A DNA stretch of 58,641 nucleotides, the filler included, from Basidioascus undulatus (lineage: Eukaryota): the NCBI GenBank assembly GCA_000826855.1. It is 3 parts of 3 records of this genome, joined end to end, with 100 filler letters (N's around TTAATTAATTAA, not from the genome) between each part and the next. Parts side by side here need not be neighbours in the genome. Positions count along the whole stretch, not along the records: positions 19,586 to 39,067 come from JTLS01000416.1; 2 more parts are not named here. One strand, given 5' to 3'. The translations under genes were made by a program, and so were the position numbers. The notes below the pieces were generated by a model, which was not told where the DNA came from, searched no databases, and saw only the letters and a list, made by a program, of their open reading frames with translations. This document shows, one piece after another, positions 341 to 39,167 of the stretch; position 1 is the first letter of the stretch; each line of letters opens with the position of its first letter.

Positions 341-3300
341 ATGGCGGATAAACCGCAGGATGCTGGTTCCGGGGTACCATTACATATTGACGAGGTGCGA
401 TCACAGTGAACCACGGAAGCACTCCCACAGAGCTCACCGCCTGCTGCCCCTTCGCTCCATCTCACACAGGCCAAGCTCGCCTCAGAGTCGGGCTCGCTAT
501 ATGCGCTACAATTCCTAGCCCAGATGTCTAAGGACCTCTTGACTATCGATGAGGTGTGTGTGCTTTGAGTCTTCGTATCAAACCAGCTCACCCTCCCACA
601 GTCCGCCCTCAAAGCCGAGCAGCCCGCGCTCACAGCGACCCTCCTCAAGCTCGTCACCCACGCCGACCCAGCCTGGCCAGTCGCAGGCCGCTCGCTGCGC
701 AACCTCGCGGCCAAGTGCCTCGCCGCGCTCTACCGTCGCGGCGAGACGCGCAGCCTCTTTGATGATATGCACGCGCTGCTCCGGGTCGTGGGGGACTTGA
801 AGGCGTCGGGGGAGGCGAGGCTGTGAGTTGAAGTGCATTCTCTCGGCCATGCGTGGGAGTCTTGGAATGCGGGAGGATGGGTCGTGCTGCCTGTTTTAGG
901 CGCTGGCAGTCAGGCACAGCGAGGACTGCGCGCTGACACCCTGTCCTCCCAGACCGGCGTGGTACTGCATCGGGGAGGTCATGCTCGAGTTTGGCTCTGA
1001 AGTGTGTTCCTCTTTAATCACCATCCACTACTTCACCTCACCCTTCTCCATAGGTCATGTCCCAGTTCAGCGAGGTCGTCGTGCAGGGGATCAAGACGCT
1101 GAAAGCCTCTTCCCAAGTGCGCTGTGTCTCCCCATCTACCCCCCACCTCCTCTGACACGCTGCGCAGTCCGTCATCATCCGCTCCCAAGCCGTCGTTGCC
1201 GTCTCCAAGTCGCTCACTTCCGCCGGCCGCGCGCTGTCCGACCACCTCGCCAAGGACCTCCTCAAGCAGCTGCGGAACGGGCTGTCAGACAAAGCCCTTC
1301 CCGTCCAACGAGCATGCGCAGATGTACGCGTCTCCCTCCTCTCCCCACCCAACCCCTCTCATACCCCCCACAGTGCCTCCTCTCCCTCGCCTCCCACACC
1401 CCCTACCTCTCCACACTCCCAGACATCGAGTCCCTCCTCGCGCTCTGCATCAAAGCCCTCGACGGGGCGGACCAGCCGACGCGCCGCGCGCTCTCCTCGC
1501 TTATGGCGCACCTCCTCGCGTCCAGCCAAGTCGAGGGCTCGGCTGCGTCTGCGGCGGACGCGCCCAGGCCCTCAGGCGCAGGCGACGACGACCCGTACCC
1601 GTCCACGTCGACCGCCGCGCGCGACGAGGGCGCCAAGACGCTCCTCTCCCCGTCCGCGATGCTCCAGCAGCTCTCGGTGCCGTTCAACCGACCGCAAACG
1701 ACGCGCAAGACCCGCAACGCCCTCATTGACGTCTACGCTACCCTGCTCTCCCTCCTCGGCACCGCCTACGTCGAGGCCCACTATGGGACGATCGTCGCCC
1801 AGCTCCTAAACGAAGTCGCGAGCTCCCCGCGGAGCACGTCGACGCGGCACGAGGCGCTCGCGATGCGCGAGCTTGTCGGCGTCCTCCTCCGCGACCTGAT
1901 CGGCGTGCGCCTCCTCAGCGAGCAGGGCCAGATCACAGCCATCAGCGAGCTCGGCTCGGCATACCTCGCTAAGTGGCCGGCCCTCCTCCCCGGGCAGACC
2001 GAGCCGCATAAGCAGGCGCTCATCATCGCCCTGGGCGAGGTCGCCGGGCTGCTGCAGCAGCTCGGGAACGCGCCGCAGCCGGTCCAAGACGTGCTGTACG
2101 AGCCGCTCGTGCGCCTCCTCGCGCACCCGAGCTTCTCAGTCCAGATCGCAGCCGCCCGCGCACTCCGCGACTTGTGCTGCTCCACCCCGTCCCGCCTCCC
2201 CACGACGCTCACGCATACGCTTGACCTCCTCTCCTCGAACCTGACAAACCTCGCAACGCCGGGTGCGCCGGCGGACCTGGCGCACCGCGCGCTGGGCCAC
2301 GCGCACGCGCTCGCAGCCCTCCTCAACGCCGTGCCCTCCCGCCAGCTCTACGTCTCACTCGCGGTCTCCACGCGCATCTTCGACCTTGCGATCTTCCTCC
2401 TTAAGTCCGCAGGCGAGCACGACCTCCCTGTCGCGAGTGTCGAGATCCAGGTCGCATGGACGCTCGTCGGCGCGCTCATGAGCCTCGGCCCGCATTTCGT
2501 CCGGCTGCACCTCCCGCAGCTGCTCGTCCTCTGGCGGAACGCGCTTCCCAAGCCCACCACCCCGCACGTCGCGCGCGCGGACGCGGAGTGGGCGTTCCTG
2601 ATGCACGTGCGCGAGTGCGCGCTCACCGCCGTCCTCGCCTTCCTGCGGCACAACGCCTCCCAGCTCGTCACGCTCGACGTCTCGCGCCGGCTCCTCGCGC
2701 TCCTCAACCACTCCCTCGCGTTCACGAACGCCTTCGCCGCGTCTCACGCCGAGCTCATCCAAGAGCAGATGCCGTCCGGCTCGGCCGCCCCCGGCCGCCT
2801 CACCCTCCTCGACAGGGACGTCATGCTCCGCCGCCGCGTGTTCCAGTGCTACACCGCCCTAGGCCAGGCCCCCGCGACGGAGGCCCTCCAGGCGGGCCTC
2901 GTCCAGGCCGCGCTTGCAGTCTTCGCCGACCCCGAGAGGTACACGGGCTCGGCAGCCCAGGCCGCCATCGCGGCGTCTGCTGGGACGTTCAAGTCCATCT
3001 GGGACGTCTGGGACGGGTACAGCTACGGCGTCACGAGCTTGCAGGAGCGTGCGGCGACGCGGATCGCCGAGTCGGAGGAGGACAAGCGGGCGAGGACGGA
3101 CTGGCTGAACAGGGATCGGATTGAGCTGCAGATCGACAGCCAGGTATGTGTCTCTGCTTCCTGAGCGGATGCTTCAGCAGCTTTGACTCAGTCTGGTGGG
3201 TCGGGGTTGCTCCAGCTCCGAAGACCCGTCATCGGCGCAACGGAACACGACGTCCTATCGCTATACGCGCGCGCCCCGACCCAGTCCGACGCGAACGCGG

Positions 3301-6300
3301 TCTGCGCCGAGCCCCCGCCGCCCGCGACCGGCCTCGTTGACGCCGCGCTCGAGCTGTTCGCGCTCGTCCTCCCGACGCAGGACGCAGACGCGCAGACGCT
3401 GACGCTCGAGCGGCTGAGCGCGTGCGTGCGCACGGGCAAGCTCGAGCGCAACCCCGGCAGGAAGTCGGCCATTCTGGTCAACGCCGTCGTCGCCCTGCTC
3501 GGCGCGCTCAGGCATACGTCCGTCGCGGCCCGCAGGGCGAGGGAAAGCATCGCGAGCGCAAGGGTCAGCGCGCTGATTAGCTCGTTACTTAAGGTGCGGG
3601 TTTCTTTTAAATGCTACTGGATAAGAGGAACAGCGGATTAATTTGGAGTATACAGGACGCGATTCTTTCGGACGACCCGAGTCTACGCTTTGCGGGAAGT
3701 GAGGCGCTCGGCCGCTTGGCGAGCATCGCCGACACGCCGTTCATGACCGCGCAGGTCCAGTTCCTAGTCGACCAAGTCGTAAGCAACCGCGATCCGGACG
3801 CGCGCGCAGGGTGCGTGCTCGCGTTTGGTGCGATCTACAGCCGCGTTGGCGGGCTTGCCGCAGGCCCGCTGCTCAAGACGATCGTCAACATCCTCATGTC
3901 TCTCAGCGCGGACCCGCACCCGGTCGTGCATTATTACGCGCTCGACGCGCTCGCGACGGTCATCGACGCCGCGAACCTCGGCTACGCGCCGTATCTGCAC
4001 AGCACGCTCGGGATGCTCGCCAAACTGTACTCCCTCGAGTCGCACGAGCCCGAGGGCGGCTCGCTCGCGAGCGCCAACGTCCGCGGGGATCTCCCCGCGT
4101 ACCAGGCCGCGTGCAAGATCATCGACGCCGCGATCGGCGTGCTCGGGCCCGAGCTCAGGGACGAGTCCAAGGTCCGCGCGCTCGTCCTCACGCTTGTCGA
4201 GCAGTTCTCGGACGAGGCGGACGAGGGCATCGCTGTCGAGGCCATCAAGTGCCTGCACCACTTTGTCATGTTCGCGCCCGAGCACGCCGACATCCCCGCG
4301 CTCATCCAAAACTTTCGCTCCCACCTCTCGTCCACGCGCCGCCCACTGAAGATCGCAGCCATCAACGGCTTCTACCAGCTCGTCCAGCGCAACGTTGCAC
4401 TCATGTCCAAGCTCGGCGGCGACCGCCTCGTCGAGGACCTGTTCGGCCTCCTCGACGACGACCCGAGCATCGACGGCGTCCGGCACGCGATCCTCAGCTG
4501 GCTCAAGCAGACGGCCGAGCTCAACCCGTCGGGGTGGATCGACCTCTGCCAGCGCATCATGGCACGTACGACCGCCTCGCAGCAGGCCGTGCAGACCGGG
4601 CCGGCGGCAGGGGGTATCAGGGACGAGGAGGTCGAAGGCCTCGGGGTCGAGTACACCGGCGGCGGGGGCGTCGCGCTCGGCGGCTCGGGCAAGGCAGCCC
4701 GCCTCACGTCCCGCTGGCGCACGCAGCTCTTCGCGCTTCAATGCTTGCACCAGGTCTTCCTCTGCGTCGTCGCGGGCGGCCGGAGGGAGCACTTCGACCT
4801 CTCGCTCGCGCGCGCATCGCGCGCCAACCCCCGCGCGCTCCTCATCAGCCGAGTCGCGGACCTCATCAAGATGGCGTTCACCGCGTCCACGGCGCAGATC
4901 ACCGAGATCCGTCTGGAGGGCCTCGTGCTACTGAGGGATGTTATTGAGGTGAGCCTGCGGCACACTACGAACTTTCGAGGGCCAGCTGACTTGGTATCTC
5001 CTACAGAACTTCGCGCGCTCGCCCGACCCGGACTTCGAGGACGCGCTGCTGCTCGAGCAGCACCAAGCGCCAATCGCCGCGGCGCTCACTCCTGCCTTCG
5101 CCGCCGACTCAACGCCAGAGATCCTCGCTGCTGCCATCCAAGTCAGCGCGGTCTTCGTCGGGTCCGGCGTTATCAAGGAGGTCCCGAAGATGGGCAGGAT
5201 CTTGAAGCTGTTGACCAACGCGCTCGAGCAGTGCAAGGGTGAACTGGACAGCCCGCATGCACACATGGTGCGAGCCGCTGACGCCCCAAAATCATCAGCG
5301 TCGGACATGTCTTCCCTCGGCGAGGTCAAGAACCTGAGCGGCAACGCGGTGACGATGCTCAAGATTTCGACGTTCACCGCGTGGGCGGAGCTTGCGACGG
5401 CGGCCGCCACTCAGCCGTACCTCGACAAGGTCCTCGAGCCGTACCTGCCCACCCTCGCCCCGGTCTGGGTCGACTTGCTCCGCGAGTACGCGCGCACACG
5501 CACAGACCCGGAGGCCTCGTCGGCACTGCCCGGTGCGGCCGACTTGTCGTACGCTGGCTTGGCTCGCGAGGTCATCCTTCCGGTGCGCCCATTCCTGTCA
5601 GATCTCTTAACGATTCTTGGGCTGATGAAACAGCACCGGCAGTACTACGAGCGCTCGTGGATCGCCATGCTGCACGCCCTGGCTGCGACTTTCCAGACGT
5701 CTCACCCGCTCGCCCTGCAGGCGATGGGTGCCGACGAAGAGCCCAAGCCCGCGCTCGCGAACGGTACCGCCGCGCGACAGCACCCCGCGCCGCTCTTCTG
5801 GGCGGTGTATGGCCTGACGTACGAGGTGCTCGCGGCGGACGACCGGACCGAACTGCGCGCGTCGGTCGCGCTCCTCGCGCTCAATGGCCTCCTGCAGTCT
5901 GACTGCGCGGGCTCGGCGATCCTCGAGGACGGAGTGTTCGCCGAGTTCTGCAGCCTAGCGCACCGCCTCGGCGTCGCGGATTCGTTCCGCGTCCAGAAGC
6001 TCGTGGTCGGGGTCATCGCCGGCTTCGTCAAGAGCTACGGTGCGCAGCTTGCGGAGTTATCTGTGTGCGTTTTGCGAGGTTGGCTGCGCACTTGGAGTCG
6101 CTGACCCCGGCGTTGTCGTGTAGCACCAACGGCTCCGCGAAAGCGTCGCTCCCAGTTGACGCCAAGCTCACGCAATGTCTGCGCATCATCGCCGTTATGC
6201 TCCGCCAGGCCATCCCGTCTCGCGATGCTTCAAGTGAGTCCTCAATCGAGCTTTGGTTGTGGCCGTCTCCGTATTGACTTTTGCCTCAGCTTCTCGCCGG

Positions 6301-7508
6301 GATCGCCCCGAAGATCGCGCCGCGCTCGTCAAAGCTGCCTTCGCCGCATACTGCGACATTGCCAACGTCTTTGCGGCAGACCTGCGACCCGATCTCTTTG
6401 CGGTCGGCCTTCAAATATATGCCGGTATGTCATGCGACGGATGCGAGATCCAGAGATGCAGAAACTGATTCATCAGCTGCTTTACCTGCACAGATATCCT
6501 GAAGGACGAGACGCCCGGGCTCGACCTGCCTGGCCAGACGCTTGCGTGCTTGAAGCTGGTGCTCGAGAACGCCGTCGCCGCGCAACGAGATGCGGACGGC
6601 GTCCTTGGCAAGACGATTCATGGCTTCCTCTCTGCCGCGCTGCAGAACATGGACGACATGCGGTAAGCGGTTACTGCAGATTGAGGGCTTCTCTCTCTGA
6701 CATGCTTCCTCTCACAGAACACGAGCCGGGCCGGTCGCAACTGCGAAGATTAAGGGAAACCTGCTCGCAGCCGTTCTTGTCATCACGAGCTTTCCGCCGT
6801 CGATCAAGCTCAGCCGTGCGGTGCTCGAGCACTGCTCCTACGTTATTACGCAGAAGCTGGATGCCGAGCCGGAGGTTTGTTCTTTTTCATCACGCTTGTA
6901 CTCACGAGCTTATCTGACCTGCCCGCCCTGCCCCAGGTCGCAATGGTCGCGGCGCAATGTGCCAAGACGCTGATCGCAGCGTCCGGCCGGGGCAATCCCA
7001 CCCTGCTCTTCTGCGTCAGTCAGTTGATCCCAGGCCTTGTTCGATTCCTCGCATCTACTGCTCGCTCTGTAAAGCAACCGGAGAAGACGAACTTTCGGGC
7101 CAACGTGGCAGAAGAAGCGCTCAAAGCGCTTCTCAACCTTTTCACCATCTCCTCGGAACAGCAACGTGCGTCGTCCCCCTTTATCTTCTCGCCAGCTCTC
7201 TTCCCTAATGCCGTCTATCCCTAGGCCCCATCCTTCTCGGCATCCTTCTCCCGACTTTCATCCTGTTCCTCTCTCCGGAAGCATCCTCCCCTTCGCCGTT
7301 GCACGCCATCGCCGTTACCCTCCTTCTTCAACTCGCCACCCAGGCGCCCGGACCCTTCCGCGAGGCAACCACAGCCCTCGCAGAGGACCAGCGGATTATA
7401 CTCGAGACATCTATTCGACAAGCGGTCACAGGCGGGCGGCCGGGCGCGCCAGCACCGCCCACGCGACAAAGTTCCGCGCCTGCTATATCTCTCAAAAGCT
7501 TTGGCTAA
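341..7508 (+). CDS. LAA1: HEAT repeat-containing protein 5 / Laa1-like AP-1 accessory protein (multi-exon)
   Basis: Long HEAT-repeat exons with HEATR5 hallmark motifs: HLPQLLVLWRNALPK, NPGRKSAILVN, RAGCVLAFGAIYSRVGGLAAGPLLKTIV, SRWRTQLFA, DLIKMAF, DPDFEDALLLEQHQA, and a C-terminal ISLKSFG. About 15 GT-AG introns. Confidence 0.9.
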
Positions 7509-10429: not shown

Positions 10430-12711
10430 TCAGCACCTCCTCCAGATCCCTCTCCGCAGCTCCTCCTCGCGATACTCAAACATGACCTGCACGCCGACGA
10501 ACAGGCAGGCGGCAGCGACGAGCATGAAGCGCGCGCCCTGCCACGTCCCGGCGAGCTCGTGGACGAGGTAGCGCGTCCCGTCCGTGCCGAGCACGAAGCC
10601 GACCAGGTTCGCAGCCATCATGGCCAGGACGTTGAGCACGCCGCCGAGCGCGCAGACGTGCCTATACCAGGGGCGGGAACTGTACTGTGGAGCACGCTGC
10701 GAGGTCAGAAGGGATTCAGGGAGGTGGCGGAGGTTGAGGGAACGTACCTTGGATGCAGGGAGGACACGCGAGGCAGCCATCTCGGGGAGGACGAAGACGG
10801 AGATGAGCCAGCCCCAGGTGAGGAGGCGGAGAGTGAGGTCATGCCAGAGCGCGACGAACGTGAAGACGAGCGCGGTGGACCAAATGGCGTTTTTGGTGCC
10901 TCCGAGTGGGACGTAGATGTACCTGTCAGAGACGAGAAGGCGGATGAGATCAACGTGACTTGCGCGAGAGGTGCGACGGGGGACAGGATAAATGGCGCAC
11001 CGCACGACCCAGAGGTTGTAGCTGCGGTGCCAAGCGCGCCAGAAGCCGAGGATCGAGTAGTTGTTCGCGACGCAGCGAATCATGTTCTCAGGTGGCTCAA
11101 CGCCGTCCGCGAGCGCCCAGAGGCGGAAGAAGCGCCAGGGAAGGAGAAGCTGCCGCGCTCAACCGAACCATCAGTCTTCGCCTCAGGCTGGTTCGTCGGA
11201 CCGAGGAGAAGCGCACCTTGAGCCAGACGACGATGAGGTTCCAGAAGCCGATCATGGAAAGCTGCGCGGGCGTATCGCCCTGCCACGCCGAGGCGTCCTT
11301 GATCGCGACGACGTGCATGAAGTGGAGGATGAGCTCCATCGCGAGCAGGCACGCGGCGAAGCGGAGCGCGTAGAGCGCGACGTTCTTGGGGGAGCTCGAT
11401 TGGGGACGCTTGAGCTGTGCGTGCGCGCACATCGAAGGTGAGTATTCAGATGAAGGGGAGGAACAGGATTTGGGAAAGGACAGGACGGACTTGGGAGAGA
11501 TAGTCGTTGAAAGTCATGATGGGTCCGGCGATGTAGAGCGGCGGGTAGAGCGCGTGGATGATGAAGTTCGCGAGGGAGTAGTCCTCCGGCGCGTGCGGCG
11601 TGGCCACGCGCTCGCGGTGGTTGGGCGGCGAGTCGGTCGGGGACGCGGAGCTCGAAACCTGTTCTGCGAGTGAGATAGTTCGCTGCAGGGGGGAAGAGGG
11701 GGAAGAGTTAGACGTACAGGAGGTTCTGAGGATTTGCGCGAGGCTTGGACGGCCCAGTGGTAGTCGATACTGAACGAGACGAGGCGGAGCATAGTAATGT
11801 TGAAGAAGACATTCCAGCGCATGATGCCGCGGTGGTTGTCCTGCCAGATCCCGCCATCCCCCAATTCCCCCGCATCAGTATGGTCATTGCAAGAGCACAT
11901 GATCCGAGCTCAGAAAAGAAGTCACCAGCTTCCCCAACCCGACCGCCGCAAACCGATACCCATCCAGCCAATCATTCGCGAACAGCGTCAGTACGTTCCA
12001 TGCCCAAATAGCAGGGACGGCCGCGCGCGTCCCGCCGAGCGTGCGCGCGAGGGTGTAGTTCGCCGCGAGGAGGGCGAGCGGGAAGATGGCTGCTGCGCCG
12101 TGCAGCCCGAGGAGGAAGGCGATGCACCAGAAGAGGGTGTAGGGGCGGCGGAGGGCGGGGCGGACGCGGGAGATGAGGCGCGAGGGGAGGGTGTGCAGTG
12201 CAGCGATGAGTGTGAGGAGAGGCACGTTGTCCCGGAAGGAACGGTATTGGTGGTCAGAGTTGTCCTTTGGGATTCGGGCTTGAGCTCTGGGGCTGGGCTG
12301 GGAAGAAAGGGAGCGGGGATGGGGACGCACGATCTTCCGACCCCAGATCCACCCGTCGGATAACCGACTCTGGTACCTCCAGTAATTAGGATGTGAGGCT
12401 ACCGACCACCGCACAACCTACGCACAGATAAGCTAGACGCCCTTCCATGCTCCGGCTCCATTTCCGAAAAGGAGAGACGCACGCGAGCTGAGCTGGACCG
12501 GAATCCAGACCATGACCGGCAGCGCGATGGCGAAGACAGCAGCGTACACGGCGAACTCGCGCGTGCGCCATCGGGGGGGCTGGGGTGTCCGTCGTTGCGC
12601 CGGCGGAGACCGGGAAGCAGCTTTCCCATCGCCATCGGACACGGCCAACGGGGAATACGCGTGCTGCCGCTGCGTCTCGAGCAGCGTTGGCGGGGGCGAG
12701 AGCGGGGCCAT
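10430..12711 (-). CDS. GUP1: GUP1/HHAT-like membrane-bound O-acyltransferase (MBOAT)
   Basis: [90 protein letters not shown] (catalytic His). Confidence 0.93.
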
Positions 12712-19485: not shown

Positions 19486-19585
19486 NNNNNNNNNNNNNNN
19501 NNNNNNNNNNNNNNNNNNNNNNNNNNNNNTTAATTAATTAANNNNNNNNNNNNNNNNNNNNNNNNNNNNNNNNNNNNNNNNNNNN
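19486..19585. other. scaffold gap with artificial TTAATTAATTAA linker
   Basis: 100 nt of N with central TTAATTAATTAA (19530-19541); genes on both sides are truncated. Confidence 0.97.
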
Positions 19586-21000
19586 GGGGGGGGAGGGAGG
19601 GGAGGGACACACCGGTCGACATTGTCTGCTGCTGTTTGTTTTCGGAGGCGGCGCAGCGCCTCGGTGAGGTGCTCGTTTAGGATCACAGCTGTTCCATCCA
19701 ATTCTATCAGCCACTGCTCTGGACATGAAGGCAGCGTGTCCACACACGCACCCTCATGTCGGACCTTCCCAATCAGCACAGTCTTCTCCTTGACCTCCTT
19801 CTCGAGCTGCTGCACGCGCGTCGCGTCCGTTTCCATGTCGCCGAGCTTGACCTGTGCAACACAGCAGGGAGGTTCAGCGAGATCGCGGAGGGGGGAGATA
19901 CGGGTGAGAGCGGCGGACCTCCGCGTTTAGCGCTCTGGACTTGTACTCGGCTAAGGATTGGGTGAGGCTGGATATGGTCGCTTTGGAGTCGGACACTGCT
20001 TGGGCAAGCTCGGCGTCCTTGGCTAAGAGGGAGATGGATATGGTCAGTCCGGCCCCTCATTCCAACCCAGCGCCAGAGAGCATGTACTCACACGCCTGAA
20101 ACTCGCTCAGCACCGCCTCCAAGTTCCTACTTGCCTCCTCCGCCCTCCTCCTCTCGTCGCGCTCCCGCTCCAGCTCGACCCTGCACATCTCCAGCTCGCC
20201 TGCGAGCTCCCTCGCCTGCTGCTCCCACTCCTCCCTCGCGGCGCCCTCCTCATGAGCGACGCGCTCCCACTCCTCACGCCCCACGCGCTCCCGCTCCGCC
20301 TCCTCCTCGCGCTCGCGCAGCTGCCCCTGGAGCAGCAGCGCCTCATCTGCGGTTGCGCGCTCGGACGTGGAGAAGCGCGAGCGCAGGGAGGAGAGCTCGT
20401 GCAACAGCGTGGAGTTGTGTGATTCGGACGAGGCGAGCTCGGTCTGGAGGGTGCTGATCGTGGATTGGAGGGTGGTCGTTTGCGATGTGAGCGTCGTAAT
20501 TTGCGCTTCTCGTCGATCGAGCTCTTCCTGCAGGCGTGGGGAAGAAACCCGGTCAGACCAGACTGGGGGCAGCATAACAGCGAAAGCAGAGCACCCACTG
20601 CGTCTTGCTTCAACCGCTCTCCGAGCGTATTACGCATCGCAGTCAACTTGCTGAGCAAGCTCCGATACTGGCTCTCGAGGCGCTCCTTCTCCCCTCTCGT
20701 GATCTCGAGCTCTCGCTCGAGCTGGCCCGTCCGGCTCTCCTCCCCTGCCTTCGCCTGCGCCCCATCGCCATTGACGACCGCGGCGGCCGCCTCATCCGCG
20801 GCGCGCGCGATCTCGGTAGATGCGCGCGGGAGGTCCTCCGAGAGGCGCATACCCGCCAGCGGTGGGGAGAGGACGGTGTCGGGCGCGGGCGCCGAGGTGC
20901 TGGTGGATGCGGTCGAAGGGGCCACTTCGGTCGACGGGCGCGCTGAGGAATCTGTAGATTGCGCCGGGGTCGATGCGCCGGCTGCATCGCCGGACGCCAT
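19586..21000 (-). CDS. RUD3: Rud3/GMAP-210-type golgin (coiled coil + GRAB domain), 3' truncated by gap
   Basis: EKERLESQYRSLLSKLTAMRNTLGERLKQDAEELDRRE; NLEAVLSEFQA; KEKTVLIGKVRHEAVILNEHLTEALRRLRK...NVDR. Confidence 0.85.
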
Positions 21001-21771
21001 GCTAGTGTTTTGGGGGGTTTAACAAAGACTGAGAGACGAGAGCGTGAGGGTGAGATCCTGAGCTGGCTGGGTACTGCTGCGCTGTGTCGCTCGCAGCGGT
21101 CGCGCGGGAATTGGATGCTATCACAGCGCGCCCCGCCAGTCTACAAATTCTAATTGCAGCCTTTCGCGAACATAGACAGTCCAGTTTCAGGCTGTCCGCT
21201 GAGCACAACTTCCGTGTATTCGACTTGATTCTGCTCATTAGTATGGTAGGACCTTTATGGTTTACAGCTTTTGTAAGAATCAAAATGTCTATCCATGAGT
21301 ACACGCGAGCAGTCGCATAGACACCGGCTCCTTGGCGGTTCACCGCCATGCCCACCCGACCTCGTCGTCGTGGATAAATTAATTAATGAGGTACCATTAT
21401 GCACACTGTCACACATACCCGAGGATAAAAAACCCGTGAAGTTCATTCAGCTGACGTATCGTGTTGTTGATGGTCACACGCGCAGGCTGGTGTGGTGCGT
21501 TCCAGCTGGGCTGCACCCTCGCTCTTCAGGACAACTCCCTGTACTCCGTTCATGCACAGAGGAAATTCCTAAGTAGGATATCTTCCTTTATAATATGGGT
21601 GCCTAAACCTCTGTTGAAGTGTGAAGTAGGCCGGAAACGACCTCGCACTGCGCCTGCTTTCGGTCAGCCGGAATTCGTTTCGGTGCCTGCCTGCCCCTTA
21701 CGAGCACGAGCTCCTTGACTTGGCTGTGTCTTCTCGCTTCCCATCCCCCCTCCTCCACACATCATTTCAAC

Positions 21772-22535
21772 ATGCCCCTCGTGTCCGCCTCCCTCGCCGC
21801 GCCCAAGACGCTCTCCGTCGCGCTCATCGGGCCCGGCGGCGTCGGGTCCGCGGTCCTGACCCAGCTCTCCTCGCTCGCCCCGCGCTTCAAGCTCGTGTCG
21901 ATCTCCAACTCTCGCCTGACGCTGCACTCCGCCTCCGGTCTCTCTTGGTCGTCCGCCAAGGCGGACCTCCTCGCGCAGGGCAAGCCCCTCAACATCGAGA
22001 CCGAGCTCGTGCCCGCCCTCGCCGCCTCGGGCGACCCTACCGTCGTCGTGGACAACACCTCCGACGCCAAGATCGCCGGGCTGTACCCGCTCTTCCTCAG
22101 CCACGGCCTCCATGTCGCTACCCCGAACAAGGTCGCGTTCTCCTCTGCGCTTACCCTCGCGCGCTCGATCGAGGATGCCGCCAAGGCGAGCGGCGCGCTC
22201 GTCTACCGTGAGAGCACCGTCGGCGCCGGCTTGCCCATCGTCAGCACGCTGGGCGACCTCGTAGCGACGGGCGACGAGGTCTGGAAGATCGAGGGCGTGC
22301 TCAGCGGGACGATGAGCTTCATCTTCAACGAGTTCAGCCGCCCCAGTGGGAAGGGCGAGAAGCGCAAGTTCTCGGAGATTGTCCGCGATGCGCGGGACAA
22401 GGGCTACACTGTGCGTCTTCCTTTCCTTTCTTGCCCCGTCCTCATCCATCCGTCTGTCTTTATCCCCGTTCTCCTCTTATTCAAACACCTTTGTCCCCCA
22501 CAATGCAGGAGCCCCACCCCGCCGCGGACCTCTCC
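21772..22535 (+). pseudogene. HOM6: homoserine dehydrogenase, 3' truncated (about 222 aa)
   Basis: IGPGGVG Rossmann motif, VVDNTS, VATPNK, ESTVGAGLP, IEGVLSGTMSFIFN, GYT|EPHPAADLS (intron 22411-22508); homology ends before the expected DVARK motif. Confidence 0.85.
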
Positions 22536-22543
22536 CCCTCGCG

Positions 22544-25500
22544 ATGGATGATGCCCCCGCCGCCGAGAGCCTCGTCGGCGCCGTCGAGGCCGCGCTCGAG
22601 GACCTTGACCTCGCTGTCAACGAGACGGGGCTCCTCCTCCTTACGCGCCGCGCGTGGCCTACCGCGTTCGTCCAGGCTAGCAAGCTCGACCGACTTGTGG
22701 GGGCTGTCCTTCGCTGGGTATTCGACGAGGTGCGCATCCCTTTCATCCCCGTTCCTCCCATTGCTCCAAATCACACCTCTCATCTCTTCTCTCCTTCCAG
22801 GACGATAAGCTCCACACCATTGCGCAGCGTTACATCACGCAGCTCCGCCCGGGCCACTCGCCGCTCACCTCCCCTAATCCTCAGCAGCCCAACAGCAGCG
22901 CCGGCGGCGGCGGGGGCGACCAGTACGTTGCTTCTCGCCGCAGGCTGGTCGAACACTACGTCCGCCCGTGGCTCGCAGCCGTGCACGACGCAGAGGCGGA
23001 CGTGTTCGGGGAGCTCGTGTTCGCTGTCGCGGCGGAGCGTGCGCTGGAGAAAGATGGGGAGAAGGGGCGGGCAGAGCACGCGGAGGATGCGGGGGAGATG
23101 GGGCTGGTGAGTTGCCTATGGGGACCAAGAATGAACAGGTCACTGATCTCCGGGCGAGTGGGCGTGGCAGGAGAGGAAGGTCAATCTGGCGGATGGGATG
23201 CTCAGGAATATCATCAAGCTCGTACAGGCTGAGCTGGTTTTCTCGTCGTGCGTGATTTTCCATTTCTCTTAGATGCTCGGCCCGTAAGTCTGACAGACGA
23301 TCTGCGCACATTCAGTTTCGACGCCATCCTCTGCTCCTGGCTGGACGAGATGCTCGCGCTGGCTAGTGCAGGCCAGGTACGAGCGTATTCGCTCTTTTCA
23401 TTTCGGAACTTGCCCACTGAGGCTCTTTGCAGAACATCACCTTCCGCTCGCTTCCCCGCCTGTTCAATGGCCGCGAGGGCGGCGGGAGCTATGCGAACCG
23501 TTCGATCGCCTACGCGTTCGCCGAGGACCCGGACACGCACGCAGACCTTCTCCTTGAGCACTCACTCGACCCTTGTATGTCTCACGCAACCGTCTTAACC
23601 CGGCGTATTTCTCACAGATGGCCATTCCTGACCAGGGCGCGTCATTCTCGAGACGTCCGCGCTCGACGCCCTAAGCCTGCAGCGTGGCCTTCGCTGGCTG
23701 CGGCTCCTAGCACAGTCGGGCGTCGCCATCGCGTCCGCGACCCTCAGTCAGCTGGCCGAGCTCGTGCTCGCGTTCGCCCCGCCGTTCGAGACCGTGCTCG
23801 ACCTTGTTCAGTCCGGGTTCTTCGCCGCGTGGCTCCGCCCGATGGGCAAGCGTGAGCTCGTCAGCCTCGTTGCGGAGGCGTACAAGAGCCAGCTCGACGT
23901 CGTGCAATTTGAGCTGGTCGAGGGGAGGGACTTGGAGGTGGTGTGAGTGAGCCCGGGCGGAGGCCTACAAAACGCAAGTCGCTCATGCTGGATGGGCTTC
24001 TTAGGTTCAAGTTCGTGCAACGATGCCTTGGCACGATCTTGCTCGTATGCGGGTGTCCTGCCGAGGAGCTCTTGGTCATGGGCTTCGCGACGGAAGCGGA
24101 GGTGGCGTCAGTGCAGAAGGGGTACGGCCCCATTTCTTCTCAAGCACTGTAAAGTGTCTCAGCCCCCCCATATCCACAGCCGCAAGGTCTCTCGAACGTC
24201 CATCGCGCCCACGCCGATCGAGATTGACGGCGACCTGATCTCCCTTCTCGCGCTCCAAACGGAGATGCCTTCTCCTGCGCTCCGGGCTCTCATCGGCAGC
24301 TTCTTTCGCGCGCTCTTCGTTTCGTCCAGCTTCGTCAACTTGCCCGACCAGCTCATCGCACGAAACTCGGACGCGCTCATGGCGGCGTAAGCTTCTTGGT
24401 TGGTTTATATAGGTGGGCGATTTGTTGATCCATGTCACTTTCAGTGTCTGGCACCTGTTCGAGTCCGAGGCTGCCTTCACGCCGGCTCGTGCACAGCTCT
24501 TTACTCGCGTTCTCCCAGTCGACCCTCAGGCGCTCAAGCGCCTTCTCGACGGCATCTGGACCTCCAGAGACTGGCAGCTCCGGTACGCCCTATCGACTCT
24601 AACATTCCTGCTGTTTCTGACACTGATGGATCCCCGAACTCGCAACAGCCACGCAGCAGTCCAGCGCCTTTTCGACATCATCGGCGAGCTGAAGGATCCG
24701 GAGCTGCTCAACGTCGAGGTCGACTGGCGACCGCATATCGCTCCGGCAGTATACCGCTTTTTCGGCGCGTGCCGTGACGACCGGGTACGCCTTGTGCCCG
24801 GTCTCAACCTGCGTCTTGCAAGCTAACAGTTTCCCGCACTCCACCAACAGGAAGAGGTCCGGCAGCTCGCAGATGTTCTCGTTCGCGCGCTGCTGCCTGC
24901 TCACGTGACCCTGCTGTCGAGCTGTTTTGAAGCTCAGCACGAGCAGGCGACGATCGACGAGCGCCTGGAACTCTGCTCGTTCATCACTCAAGTGCAGCCG
25001 CTGCTGCCCGAGTGGCAAGGTATGCCTGTCGCGTGCGCATTCTTGGGCGACAGAGCTGACCCTGAGCAACGCGGCAGTCTTGAGCTGGGTCACGCTCCTG
25101 GACGCTCTTTTTGAGATGCAGTACGAGCTCAACAACGACGGTGCATCAGCTGTCGGTAAAGCTTTGGTGCGTCTCAGGCATCGGTCTCGATAACCCGCTC
25201 TGACGTCTTCTTGAACATAAGTTGAACCCAGACACAAGCGTCAAAACATCGCCGTCTGAGCGTGACCCGAAGATCGAGCAGCTTTGGGTGAGCATATTTG
25301 AGGATGTTGCCCCTTTGCGAAGTTGTCTGACTGTGTATCCCGTACAACAGCTACACCTCATCTCGATTACCTTGCAGCAAGTCTCAGCCGGACATCCAGT
25401 AGATTTGGTCACGCTCTTGAAGCTGAAGTATCACCGTCAGTTCGTTCCGGACCACATCTCCAAGAACGATGCTGACTTTTGCATCAGTCGCTTGCGTCTA

Positions 25501-28244
25501 TTTCGACGCCGTCCAGATGCGACCGTCGTCAGAGGGCGCCGCGCTGCACATCAAGTTCGAGCAACCCTCCGCGCCATCGGACCTCGCGCTCGGCTGCCTC
25601 GTCGCGCTCAAGCAGGTTCTCGACTGCTCGTCGCACATCGAGCTCTCCGCCGCTGCCTTCGGCGGCTACGATGCAGAGGCGGCGGTAGCGTCGCGGCATC
25701 TGACAGGCGCGGTGTTCGTCGACCTCGTCTTCGGCATCGTCCCCGCGCTCGACCTCGCGGCGCTCCCGTACCTCGTCTGCCGTAACTGGCTCGAGGCCGT
25801 CCTGGTGATCGTATATAAGGCAAGTCTATCTACGCGACACTCGCATCATTTTCGGGATGCTGACGACCGCGAGAGTCCGGCAGCATGACTTGCAAAGCCC
25901 GATTTTCCGACGCCGCGCCTTGCAAGACGGTCTCGTCAAGACTCTCTCGAAGGTCGCCGATCTCGTCCTCGCGAACTCCATCAGCGTCGAGAATCGTCAA
26001 TTAGCCATCACCATTTCGACGACCTTCCTCACTCGCGTCCCGGACCTGGCTCCAAGCGTCCTGAGGTACGCTTGACTGCATTCAAAGTCGGGCGTGAGCT
26101 TGCGGCTAAATGTGCTGATCCCTTGCCACCGAATGACAGCCGGCAAGTGCTCACACTGTCCCAGCTCGTCTCGCAGCTTCAAGACGACCCGGAAGGTCAT
26201 CTCTGTCAGCAAGCTATAGCATTCCTGCAGTCTGCATTTGCGAGGTAAGCTGAACGTAGCCTCAAAGTGCCACAGCAAGAGAGGCTTACATTTCAACCGC
26301 AGGTTCGCCCTACGCGGCGTCTTTGTCCTCCTCTTCAAGGTTAATTGGTGATGTTACAACGCTTCAACTCACTTGTTAGCTCACAAGTACGGACCTTCCC
26401 AGGGATCTCCCGATCCGCGGGCCTCGGATTCAGCTTTCGACATCTCGGTCGTCCTCGAGCGCGTTCTGGTGTCGAAGGAGCGACAAACGGACGAGGGAGT
26501 CCAGCTTCTTCATGCGATGGTCGTCCAAGACGTCCTGCACCACATCCACCGCGAGACGCACGCCAAGGGCACTTTTTCGCATATCCTGCGCAGTCTCCGA
26601 CACTACATCGAGCGCGTCTATCCTCGCGGTTGGTCGAATTCGCTGCAGAAAGGTGCGTCTTTCTCCTCATCGTCCACTTACGGAGCGGAAGCTGACATTA
26701 GCCCTTTCACCAGAGCTGGCATCCTGGTGCGAGCACGTCGCGCGGTCGCTAGGATACGGCTTCGCAGGCGAGGTCGATGCAGACCCACTACTGTCGATTT
26801 GCGCGACGGTTGTGGAGAATCATCGCGGCGAAGGCTCGAAGGTCGGTCCGACGGTGGGGTAAGTCTTACGCTCTATGACTGACACGATTCTGGTAGGCCG
26901 TTCTGCACAGCGTCGAAGCGCTCTTGCGTTCATCGCTCGTACACGCCAATGTTTCGGCTTCGATGCTCATGCGCGTCCTCCGCCTCTACCTTACCGCTTC
27001 AGCTCAGCACGCACCGGATGCCGACAGCCCGTTCGCGCTGGCCGTCATCGAGACGCTGAGTGACGCGCTGCGCGGGCGGACCGCCGTACAGCCGAAAACG
27101 TTGCAAGCCATGCTCGAGGTGGGTTGCTTTCTTCGACTCGCGGTCTCTTCTTATTTCTTACATATGCGACACTCAGGTCTATGCTTCCGGCACCGGCTCG
27201 TCCAAGTACCGCGCTCTCGAATGCATCGACTTCTTGCGAGGCAACGAGCGCGCCGACAGCCGGTACCTCGCGGCCGGCTTCGACACCTTCGTTGCAGCTG
27301 CCAAGCTCTTTCTCGACTCTGCCGAGTCCGAACCGGCTCTCCTGCAAGATTACTTCTTTCAAGCCCGCCAAGTAAGCACGTTCGCGCTGTTTTGATAAAC
27401 AAACCTCCGCTCACAAATCTTTCCCCAGCCGCCTTCTCAGACCACGCCCAGCCCCTTATCGAATGTCCGGCTCCTCAACTGGCTGCACCTCGGCGCACTC
27501 TACGTTTCGTCCTCCCGCCCGTCCCGCACGCTCCTCCAGCACGCCGAGCGCGCCTCCGCCGTCCTCGGCCTGTCCCTGCGCTTCTCCTCGGCCTTCCTCA
27601 AGGACGAGCACGCCGCGGCGCGCATCGCCGAGAGCGTCAATCAGGCGCTGGCGCTCGTCAAGCTCGCCCTGCTCGTATACCGCCGTGCGGCACTGCCGGG
27701 CGAGGGGCTCGAGGGCGTCGTGCACGACGGGGCTGCTGCTAAGGACGAGGAGACGCTCGCGGGCGAGCAATTCTGGAACGGCTTTTGGCCGCCTTTCAGG
27801 GTGCTGCTCGTCGAGTCGGTCGACGCTGATGGGAACCTTCCGGTGCGTTGAGCATGTCGGCCAATTGCTAACCGTTCTCATGCTGACATATTTGCTTTTG
27901 CAGCCACTGGCGTCGTCTATTTGGCTGTGCTTCGCTGACGTCGTTCTCTTCCTTCACGCTTTGCGCTCGCCGCTCGTCAATTCGCAGGCGACCGAGCTCG
28001 TCAACTGTCTGCAAATGCTTCGCGTCTTCTCCAAAAGCGAAGGCACCACGAAGGTTCGTTTATTCGCCATCCGCCGCCTTCCGTTCCGTACGAGCGATGC
28101 TGACTTCGGGCCTGGTTCGCGCAGTTCCACCGCGCTTTGCAGTGCTTCTCCGAACCGCCACCGAGCGTATCGACCGAGACGCTCCTCGCCCAAGCCAAGA
28201 CTGATCTTCAAGCGGCGATCAAGCTCCGGCAGCTGCGCGGCTGA
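22544..28244 (+). CDS. large multi-exon alpha-solenoid protein, putative UNC79-like
   Basis: MDDAPAAES start, about 20 spliceable introns, stop TGA 28242-28244; helical Leu-rich sequence; WQLRY and C..Q...LSW motifs (see findings). Confidence applies to the gene; the product name is tentative. Confidence 0.75.
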
Positions 28245-28453
28245 TGAGCTTCTTTGCCACCCTCTCCGCCCTCTCCAGCCTCCCCACCCCACCCGTCCCG
28301 GTGTCTATTGTCGCTCGCTTGTTCTGCTTTGCTCTCGCATTTTGCTCGCATGATACCCGCTGGAATGATACAACATGTTGTGATCTTTCGTTATGCAATG
28401 GTCGTACAGCTCGTGTGGATGCAAAGTGGGAAGGGGACGTCGGTGTTTCGTCT

Positions 28454-29117
28454 CTACTGACCGCCCGGCGGAGCAGGAGCGGCTTTCTTGGCCTCGTTCC
28501 CTTCAGCGCTCGGGCTCGCAGCCCGTTTCGTCCCCTTCGCAGCGTTCCCGTTACTCCGCACTGCATCTTGGATGATGTCTCCCTCGGTGAACGCCGCCCT
28601 GGTAACCCCATTCCTTGTCAGCCGGCACTCTTCTCGTTGAGCACGGGCTGGACAACGCACCGAGCCCGCTTGATGTCCTCCTGCATATACAACAGCTCCT
28701 CCACACGCGCAAGCTTCTTGGGGTCGTTCCGCAGGACGAACTTCAGGTCCTCGACCTTGATCTTCCCTCGGTTGGTCGAGACGCGGTGAGCGCGAGTGCA
28801 CTGCGGAAAGCCGGCAAGGCACTCAGCGGCAAAGACGGAACGAAGGATGGGGAACGGACGGGGACGCACGACGTCAGAAATGTAGTCTATCAAGATCTCC
28901 TCCATCACCGCAACGCTGTCCGGATCCGGGTTGGGATCGTCCCCGAAGGAGGTCATGAGCATGCGCACTACCCATCCGCCCGTGAGTTCCACGCCGTGCG
29001 ATGTGAGGACGCAAGGTACGCACAGTCCTTAACGAACTGTCCGCGCATGTTGGTGCGCCGCTTGGCGCGCGGCGGCTCAGCAGCGGGCGCATTGGATGTA
29101 GACGCGTTGGCGGACAT
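28454..29117 (-). CDS. TAF13: TFIID subunit 13 (histone fold)
   Basis: RGQFVKD|.RMLMTSFGDDPNPDPDSVAVMEEILIDYI...RGKIKVEDLKFVLRNDPKKLARVEELLYMQEDIKRAR. Confidence 0.92.
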
Positions 29118-30582: not shown

Positions 30583-33500
30583 TCAAACCCTCGACATCTC
30601 TACTGGAACCGCAGAGTATCCGTCGCCCTCCTTCTTCCTCGACCACCCCTCGAACAAGCGTCCCAGCGCGGCCTGTGCGCCCGCGAAAGGCGTCGGCTTC
30701 GCATCACCCACGTCTGCCAAGCCCGGGCGCTTCCACCGCTTGAGCGTCAGACTGCTGGCGACGACGCTGACGCTCGAGAATGCCATCGCGGCGCCGGCCA
30801 TCATCGGGTGGAGGTGGAAGCCCCACGGGAGGAGCACGCCCATCGCGAGCGGGATTCCGACGACGTTGTAGATCGTCGCCCAGATGAAGTTGAGCTTGAT
30901 CTTGCGCATAATAGCGCGGCTGAGGTCGAGCGCAGCGACGACATCTTGCAGCTCCGGCCGCGTGAGGACGATGTCCGCCGCCTCGATGGCGATGGACGTG
31001 CCGGACGCGAGCGCGATGCCGACGGACGCGGCGGCAAGTGCGGGCGAGTCGTTGACACCGTCGCCGACCTGGAGAAAAAGTACAAACATGAGCAAAGAAG
31101 CGGATGCGAGATTATGATAGGGGTCCGACGTACCATAGCGACTCCGCCGCCAGCCTGCATCATCCCCTTGACCCTCTCCCTCTTCCCCTTCGGACTCACG
31201 CCCGCCCATACGCGCTCCTTCGCAACGCCCGCCTCCTTCGCTATCGCCAGCGCCGTGGGCATCTGGTCGCCCGTCATGAGGTACGATTGAACGCGCATCG
31301 CCTGCAGCGCCTGCACCGTCGCGCGCGCGGAGGGCTTGACGGCATCGGCGAGCGCGAGCGCGAGGACGGGCTGGGACTGCACGGCGAGGACAATGACGGA
31401 GCGGCCGAGGGCGGCCTGTGCCGAACCGAACGAGGAGAGGGGATCCGGCATGCCGTGCGGGGCGGCGAACGCCGGACTGCCGATGAAAATGTCGAACAGC
31501 TCCGGCGTGAGCGCCGCGCCGCGCTGCAGGGCGAGACGCGCGCGGACGCCCAGCCCCGTCACGGCCTCAAAGTCCTGCGTGACAGCACCGGACACAGAGA
31601 AGTCGTCGATGCCGAGCTCGGCCATGGCGTACGCGGCGAGCGCCTGTGCGAACGGGTGCTCGCTCCTCGCTTCGGTCGCGCCGGCGAGCTTGAGAAGCTC
31701 TTGCGGGCTGAGGCCCTGCGGAACCGACGCAGGGTCGACGGACGCCGACGCGACGATGCTCATCTTGCCGAAAGTGATCGTGCCCGTCTTGTCCCAGACG
31801 ACGCGGTTGACCTTGCTTGCCTCCTCGAGCGCGCCGCCGCCCTTGATGAGGATCCCGTTCTGCGCGCCGACGCCCGTGCCGACCATGACGGCCGTGGGGG
31901 TGCTGAGGCCTAGCGCACACGGGCACGCGACAACGACGACGCTGATGCAGAGCTTGAGGCAGACAGCGAAGTTGTTCGCGCCGGGCTCGTGGAAGATGTG
32001 GGGGAGTGCGTCGTGCGGGAGGATGAGGCAGGACAGGACGAGCCAGCCGAAGAAGGTGAGCAAGCCGAGCGAGATGACAGTCGGGACGAAGTAGCCGGCG
32101 ACGGTGTCGGCGAACGCCTGGATCGGCGCCTTGGACGTCTGCGCGTCCTCGACGAGCTTGACGATCTGCGCGAGCGCGGTGTCGGAGCCCGAGCGCGAGA
32201 CGAGCATGTCGAACGTGCCCGATCCGTTGACAGTCCCGCCCGTCACGCTGTCGCCCTCGCGCTTCGCGACGGGGAGCGCCTCGCCAGTGACCATGCTCTC
32301 GTCGATGGTGGACGTCCCATAGATGACAGTCCCGTCCGCGGGGATCCGGTCGCCCGGAACGATCTTGACATAGTCGCCCTTCTGCACGAGCTCGGTCGGG
32401 ACGCGCTTCTCGCTCTGCGCGCGGGCCGGAGCGGCGCCGCTGCCGTCGAAAACGTGTTTCGTGGGGGAAGGGGGGGAATAGTTGACGTAGATGATGGCGG
32501 TAGAGGGAGTGAGCTGGAGGAGGCCGGAGAGCGCCGTGCTGGTCTTGCCCTTGGCGAGGTTCTCAAGGTAGCGGCCGAAGGAGACGAAGGTGATGAGCAT
32601 GGTGGAGGTGTCGAAGAAGGTTTGGGGAGGGATTCCGTCCTCGGGGAAGGGCAGGACCACGGCGAAAAGCATCGCGCAGACGCTGTAGACGAACGCCGCA
32701 GTGGTGCCGAGGACGACGAGGACGTCCATCGTCGCGACGCCGTGCTTGACGCTCTTCCACGCGGTCCTGTAGAACCGCCGCCCGACGCCGAACTGGACCG
32801 GCGCCGTCAAGGTGAGACACGCGAGGTCGCCGAGCGTGAGGCCACGGAAGAGGCAGAACATGACGAGCGGGCGCGTGGGCGGGATCATGCCGAGGATCAT
32901 GCTGATAACGAAGACGGGCACAGCGAAGAGGAGCGACCTCCGGAACGCCGCGCGCCACTCCGCAATCTCGCGCGAGCGGCTCAGCGACGCAAGCTGCGAC
33001 GTGTTGCGGTCGTCGCAAAGAACGCAGTCGAAGCCGCACGCCTCGACGGCCTCGACGATATCGCGCGCGCCGACAGCATCCGGGTCGAACTCGACCTTCG
33101 CGCACTCCAGCGACAGCGAAACGGACGCGGAGAGGACGCCTGGGGTCGAGGTGAGAGCGTTCGTGACAGAGGAGGTGCAGGACGCGCAGGTCATGCCGAG
33201 GATGGTGAGGTCGAGCGTGGAAGACGTGGTAGGTGGGAGAACGGAAGCTTCGAAGCCAATGTCGCAGATTTCCTGCAGCATCTCAGAAAATGAGCATAAT
33301 TTCGGTATTGCGTGAAGGGAGATCGTGCGTACCTCGGCGATACGCTCCGGCGTCCACAAGTCGGGGTCATACTCGACGACTGCCCGTTCCGCCAGGAGAG
33401 CGACCCTCGCGGAGAGAAGGCCTGGTTGATTCCGCAGAATGCTCTCTATCGACTGTGGAGAGATGGGACGTGTCAGAGAGTCGGAGAGAAACGCGAAGGG

Positions 33501-33826
33501 TAGAAAGTCGGAGAGAAACGCGAAGGGTAGAGTGCCACCCCATCCAATGAATTGACCGGTGCGCGGGCCGCGCCTGAAAGCGCGTGGCCAACGGCGAGCA
33601 GGCTCGTCGCAACAGCAACGAAATGAAAGCTCAGTAGACTTACCTCTACGCATGCACCGCAGGTCATTCCCTCGACCTTCAACTGCGCGATCTCCTTCTT
33701 CTCCTCCGTTTCGCCCTCTCCCTTCCCCTCGTCCACCAAGTGCTCCGCCTCAGCCTCAGAAAGCGCGTCTGCCTGCAGACGCGGCGAGCGCATTGCCGAC
33801 CCGAGAAATGAGAGGGATCCCGCCAT
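30583..33826 (-). CDS. CCC2: copper-transporting P1B-type ATPase
   Basis: Two metal-binding motifs (GMTCGAC, GMTCASC), [35 protein letters not shown] and MAFSS copper-site motifs. Confidence 0.96.
33479..33531. repeat. 27-bp tandem duplication inside CCC2 intron 1
   Basis: AGTCGGAGAGAAACGCGAAGGGTAGA(A) x2. Confidence 0.9.
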
Positions 33827-39067: not shown

Positions 39068-39167
39068 NNNNNNNNNNNNNNNNNNNNNNNNNNNNNNNNN
39101 NNNNNNNNNNNTTAATTAATTAANNNNNNNNNNNNNNNNNNNNNNNNNNNNNNNNNNNNNNNNNNNN
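39068..39167. other. scaffold gap with artificial TTAATTAATTAA linker
   Basis: 100 nt of N with central TTAATTAATTAA (39112-39123). Confidence 0.97.

Follow-up and report, generated by a model that had tools for sequence, protein, structure and literature searches.

The question raised by this locus is whether a plus-strand gene of 25 predicted exons, found in a 58,641-nt stretch of DNA (hereafter the window, filler included), encodes a fungal UNC79 and, if so, why its predicted product is so much shorter than published fungal members of the family. In animals, UNC79 is a subunit of the NALCN-FAM155-UNC79-UNC80 channelosome, for which Senatore 2025 cites cryo-EM structures, and forms a head-to-tail dimer with UNC80. 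The animal channel passes a Na+ leak and the fungal one Ca2+. The UNC79 identity had been proposed in an earlier note on this DNA. From alignment to published sequences, and from contigs of three sequencing runs, we conclude that the gene at 22532-28244 (+) very probably represents the C-terminal ~60% of the UNC79 orthologue of the host, cut by an assembly misjoin.

The window is eukaryotic DNA with abundant short introns and a GC content of ~0.51-0.68 per 2-kb block. The same spacer, N44-TTAATTAATTAA-N44, a linker with stops in all frames, occurs twice, at positions 19486-19585 and 39068-39167. Thus, the window consists of at least three joined contigs, and gene neighbourhood across the spacers is meaningless. 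Exons were predicted using a codon model trained on the long open reading frames of the window and a dynamic-programming exon chain over positions 22300-28700, in which only GT donors were allowed. Three public sequencing runs (X1, X2 and X3) contain the stretch, and their contigs were placed on positions 20800-24200. None of them is listed as RNA, and the type of the X3 run was guessed only ('DNA?'); its contigs, however, lack introns and leave 21028-21711 uncovered, as expected of cDNA.

The dynamic-programming model gives a 25-exon gene on the plus strand with limits 22544-28244, the same as those proposed earlier. The end of the gene stands. The stop codon is at 28242-28244 and the C-terminus is intact, with the last 150 residues aligning to the C-terminal ends of the UNC79 proteins from Lentinus and Phanerochaete (the pattern ..W-N-x-[LF]-W-P-P-F.. 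and then ..P-L-A-S-S..). The start does not stand, as the ATG at 22544 encodes an internal methionine 9 nt past the misjoin. We place the partial coding sequence at 22532-28244 (+), with 1,387 codons plus a stop and an open 5' end; the protein of 'about 1,400 aa' inferred previously corresponds to the length of the fragment only (1,387 C-terminal residues), read from a misjoined contig. The model places exons 1-6 at 22532-22729, 22801-23106, 23171-23247, 23316-23376, 23433-23574 and 23636-23942, and exons 7-12 at 24005-24121, 24180-24386, 24445-24582, 24649-24784, 24851-25019 and 25078-25140. Exons 13-18 are predicted at 25232-25287, 25351-25435, 25488-25819, 25884-26065, 26140-26244 and 26303-26339, and exons 19-25 at 26403-26628, 26714-26858, 26911-27118, 27177-27371, 27441-27842, 27904-28053 and 28125-28244 (all on the plus strand).

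Splicing of the 5' part of the gene is directly documented. X3 contigs skip seven GT..AG intervals, six of them in the UNC79 gene and one in the adjacent dehydrogenase gene (22411-22508, +). The six are all of the introns predicted in the covered part between 22573 and 24107 (6/6), at 22730-22800, 23107-23170, 23248-23315, 23377-23432, 23575-23635 and 23943-24004. Because these contigs lack the introns, the 5' exons of the UNC79 gene are spliced and transcribed. Word depth in X3 is 42.5 for the dehydrogenase contig and 7.9 for the UNC79 contig, but expression cannot be read from contig depth. Within the 20800-24200 interval on which contigs were placed, they confirm introns 1-6; introns 7-24 rest on the gene model and on hand alignment to published fungal UNC79 sequences (Senatore 2025, Data S15).

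Two of these downstream introns required particular attention. The first, at 24583-24648 (+), is 66 nt long, in frame and without a stop codon, and has a GTACGC donor, a CTAAC branch site and a CAG acceptor. Fungal UNC79 homologues pass from W-E-L-R directly into the next helix, without the 22 residues that the interval would encode. The second, at 25820-25883 (+), is a probable GC-AG intron (GCAAGT...GCTGAC...CAG) that is suggested by homologue alignment. We favor it because it is the sole donor giving ..VIVYK then HD.., as in the ..VIYKHD.. or ..IVYKHK.. of homologues; the GT-only model had cut the preceding exon 9 nt too early. Five of the 24 introns (24583-24648, 24785-24850, 25288-25350, 26340-26402 and 27372-27440) have lengths divisible by three. 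One of them at least (24583-24648) is stop-free, and its retention would add 22 residues and keep the frame.

The peptides that had drawn attention to the gene lie in a conserved block at 24445-25140 (+; exons 9-12), which reads W-Q-L-R ... FFGA ... REEVR ... LLPAH ... SSCFE ... PEWQ/VLSW. They are present on the plus strand: '..DGIWTSRDWQLR' closes exon 9 (24445-24582), 'EEVRQLADVLV...LPEWQ' is exon 11 (24851-25019), and 'VLSWVTLLDALFEMQYE' is within exon 12 (25078-25140). The one part that has to be withdrawn is the 'YALS' quoted after WQLR, which is noncoding read-through of the intron at 24583-24648 and is absent from homologues.

Similarity to fungal UNC79 extends well beyond this block. 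We aligned the predicted protein by hand with rows of Data S15 from Lentinus tigrinus, Phanerochaete, Kwoniella and Mucoromycota, and the identity figures given here are hand counts on that alignment, not program scores. Relative to L. tigrinus UNC79 (RPD80165.1; 2,335 aa) the protein is collinear from approximately residue 895 of the L. tigrinus sequence to its end. The first block, with the pattern ..L-V-x-x-[VI]-E-A-x-L-x-D-[LI]-D-L-x-V-N-E-x-G-L-L-L-L.., is identical at 34 of 78 positions without a gap, and the focal block is identical in 36 of 110 columns with one gap. Later stretches occur in the same order in both proteins: LLKLK-x-HLA, ..FVDL.., ..VIVYK then HD.., F-L-x-S-A-F-x-R-F-A, LLRSSL, W-N-x-[LF]-WPPF and PLASS. 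This collinearity with published fungal members (Senatore 2025, Data S15), which extends to the C-terminus, bears out the proposed UNC79 identity. Identity to L. tigrinus is nevertheless only 33-44%, and the host is seemingly outside Agaricomycetes. A Kwoniella row (2,301 aa; from the same class as Cryptococcus neoformans) shows ~43% identity over the first block and has diverged further around W-x-L-R. None of six 5-letter words taken from the focal block occurs in the 12 supplement files searched, indicating that there is no near-identical orthologue in the published set.

The order of landmarks is also shared with animal UNC79. Animal rows (Senatore 2025, Data S14) read DWRVRF-AVE ... C-LE-QFD ... 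DR ... LSWEFF, in the landmark order of the focal block, so that the common pattern is D-W-x-[LV]-R ... C-x-E-x-Q ... D-R ... L-S-W, plus ..[IV]-x-Y-K... The spacing between the first W and that of LSW is also nearly the same in the window protein and animal UNC79, at 107 versus 109 residues (hand count). The ..ILYKYP.. block of animal UNC79 is likewise collinear with the ..YK.. block of the window protein. The pattern given for animal UNC79 in the earlier note was roughly right in form, with the right landmark order, but the word is WRVRF rather than WQLRF; WQLR does not occur in the Data S14 file.

Animal UNC79 is too divergent to be found by phmmer or Pfam searches with exon-sized pieces. 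A Pfam search with 13 exon or open reading frame translations identified no UNC79 or UNC80 family and only weak, unrelated matches below cut-offs. In phmmer searches of PDB chains with exon-sized queries, which are underpowered, none of five exon pieces matched any chain of UNC79 with an E value of 10 or less; we found chance matches only (YaxA, E 1.6; 3op6, E 0.79; RBM42, E 3.1; and an SDR, E 1.0). The focal exons were also searched by word index against proteins of 206-2,000 aa, and nothing was found; most Data S15 rows seen are longer than 2,000 aa. The C-terminal exon, used as an HMMER query against the full set of 1.84 billion representatives, gave no matches, and the matches from an ESM Atlas search were noise, with recognition below threshold. 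For exon 23 by itself, a piece of 134 aa modelled without an alignment, AlphaFold2 predicted four helices with a mean pLDDT of 51.6, too weak for a fold search. Thus no tool gave a scored link to UNC79 on exon-sized pieces, for which these searches are underpowered; published BLAST with full-length sequences fails too.

These results bear on a first alternative, that the fungal family and animal UNC79 are not true homologues, the former being a convergent helical-repeat partner of Cch1. The absence of UNC79 matches for the five exon pieces in the PDB and for the translations in Pfam would fit such a reading, as would the reported failure of BLAST to reach any fungal sequence from animal UNC79 and the reported global identity of 23.1% (Senatore 2025). 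We nevertheless consider it improbable, given the collinearity of the focal and ..YK.. blocks with the animal rows. In addition, a mixed HMM recovers both the animal and the fungal groups (Senatore 2025), the top Foldseek matches of AlphaFold models of the C. neoformans proteins are human UNC79 and UNC80, and the proteins purify reciprocally with Cch1 and Mid1 (Boucher 2024). Homology with animal UNC79 is the reading we adopt.

The complex had been described in the earlier note as functionally uncharacterised in fungi, but it has already been characterised by Boucher 2024 (10.1101/2024.10.22.619677) and by Senatore 2025. In C. neoformans, CNAG_06362 (Unc79) and CNAG_01613 (Unc80) fall in a knockout phenotype cluster with Cch1 and Mid1, and reciprocal association with these proteins is seen in AP-MS experiments (Boucher 2024). 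Loss of Unc79 leads to tolerance of FK506 and cyclosporin (Boucher 2024), and Unc79 mutations are reported among suppressors of calcineurin inhibition. HMMs and AlphaFold3 lend support to the fungal family, for which 39 fungal UNC79 sequences are reported in Data S15 (Senatore 2025). Thus, the retention of UNC79 and UNC80 in fungi has been in print since 2024-2025, and the gene in the window adds one more orthologue.

By analogy with these systems, the host protein would be a large cytoplasmic subunit built of helical repeats. It would form a head-to-tail pair with UNC80, and the UNC79-UNC80 pair would dock on a calcium channel formed by Cch1 (NALCN-type) and Mid1 (FAM155-type). The antiparallel Unc79-Unc80 dimer would sit at the cytoplasmic side of the Cch1-Mid1 channel, and Ca2+ entry upstream of calcineurin would depend on it. 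The closest characterised counterpart is C. neoformans Unc79 (CNAG_06362), a basidiomycete protein of the same family (a row of Data S15) that is also encoded by an intron-rich gene; a similar role may be expected here, in partnership with Unc80 on the Cch1-Mid1 channel and upstream of calcineurin. We did not recognise UNC80, Cch1 or Mid1 in the window.

Compared with C. neoformans Unc79, the copy in the window is without the N-terminal ~900 aa, and this is only through the misjoin. The join, at 22532-22535, is a 4-nt overlap (CTCC) of two unrelated contigs. Contigs of X1, X2 and X3 that approach from the left stop matching the window at 22535 and continue as homoserine dehydrogenase (G-S-D-V-A-R-K-L..). 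From the right, a 36.6-kb X2 contig stops matching at 22532 and continues upstream in the UNC79 frame, where it resembles the Lentinus sequence at that point. The continuations on both sides extend for 390 nt to >15 kb, and no contig crosses 22532-22535 in any of the three runs. Because no contig bridges the join and both ends continue as the expected genes, the ATG at 22544 is internal and the true UNC79 is longer.

The left side of the join tells the same story. The 5' part (two-thirds) of a homoserine dehydrogenase gene is present at 21772-22535 (+), with Pfam matches to NAD_binding_3 (E 1.2e-14) and Homoserine_dh (E 2.2e-11). The latter match covers only profile positions 1-53 of 173, and the rest of the domain was found neither downstream nor elsewhere in the window. 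The misjoin explains both the missing UNC79 N-terminus and the missing dehydrogenase domain. Published fungal UNC79 rows that we compared are 2,301 to 2,750 aa in length, with C1 zinc fingers in the N-terminal half (Senatore 2025, Data S15), and neither a C1 pattern nor an N-terminal motif was found in any of the six frames of the window, in which the gene is cut at 22532. The real protein would continue upstream, most likely by ~900 further N-terminal residues that include C1 (phorbol-ester/DAG-type) zinc fingers.

A second alternative takes the window at face value: a deletion in the strain would have fused the dehydrogenase gene, reduced to its 5' part, with the 3' 60% of the UNC79 gene, and the shortened UNC79 would then start at the ATG at 22544. 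The window does read this way, and the 25 exons downstream are intact and transcribed. We regard a real truncation of this kind as very unlikely, and slightly less plausible than convergence. None of the three runs bridges the junction, although two of them may be the source of the DNA, and contigs on both sides carry on with expected genes. Moreover, the dehydrogenase frame is lost at the join, and the catalytic domain of the enzyme would be destroyed. The apparent truncation of UNC79 in the window is an assembly artefact, and in any annotation of this assembly both UNC79 and the homoserine dehydrogenase would appear truncated.

Least probable of all is that the gene encodes UNC80 or another large solenoid (Tao3/Furry, Mon2/Dop1 or HEATR5): although all of these are long proteins of helical repeats rich in Leu and Ala and a HEATR5/Laa1 gene does occur in the window, collinear identity of 33-44% is seen with UNC79 rows only, the Laa1 gene sits at its own locus and none of its Pfam matches recurs on the UNC79 gene, and six short words of the protein occur 5, 2, 2, 2, 11 and 7 times in the fungal UNC79 file (29 in total) as against 0, 0, 1, 0, 0 and 0 times in the fungal UNC80 file (Data S13), where the lone match is at an unrelated place. 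Fungal UNC80 (CNAG_01613) is of similar size, has the same kind of repeat and is the expected partner, yet shares no common blocks with the window protein. Assignment of the gene as an orthologue of the published fungal UNC79 family, rather than UNC80 or another solenoid, is thus supported by these sequence comparisons.

Other genes in the window provide information about the host. The Laa1/Sip1/HEATR5-type clathrin-coat HEAT protein is encoded at ~900-7000 (+; Pfam PF20210, E 9.8e-44), and the best database matches of its N-terminus are 51-53% identical. A copper P-type ATPase is encoded at 30801-33749 (-) in a 982-codon open frame with HMA, E1-E2 ATPase and hydrolase domains; its best matches are 52-55% identical and are scattered over Basidiomycota and Glomeromycotina. 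Given that no match exceeds 55% (copper ATPase) or 53% (Laa1) despite hundreds of annotated basidiomycete genomes, the host appears to belong to a poorly sampled lineage. Also present is a fragment of an MBOAT-family O-acyltransferase at 10430-11158 (-; Pfam E 7.1e-24).

A quick maximum-likelihood tree of the copper ATPase, built with 28 rows picked from the 120 matches listed and without Ustilaginomycotina, places the window sequence beside Wallemia (SH-aLRT 99), with long branches. In a Laa1 tree, also of 28 rows picked from the 120 matches listed but without Wallemia or Ustilaginomycotina, the window sequence branches outside the clades of Tremellomycetes (support 99) and Agaricomycetes (support 100) and is also separate from Pucciniomycotina (100); the node that joins Tremellomycetes and Agaricomycetes to the exclusion of the window has a support of only 81. 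The window rows are compositionally deviant in both trees.

This placement bears on the distribution of UNC79. The 37 headers that we found in Data S15 (39 are reported in the paper) are only from Agaricomycetes, Tremellomycetes and Mucoromycota/Glomeromycota. We judge the evidence evenly balanced as to whether the host lies outside Tremellomycetes and Agaricomycetes, possibly near Wallemia, in which case UNC79 and, by implication, the channelosome would occur in a third basidiomycete lineage. The sequence lists of the published FungiDB-based survey include no UNC79 member from that lineage (Senatore 2025).

The UNC79 reading of this gene is right but published, and the placement of the host is the only, modestly new, point. 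If that placement is true, retention of the channelosome would reach deeper in Basidiomycota, and the known fungal range of the complex would be slightly wider.
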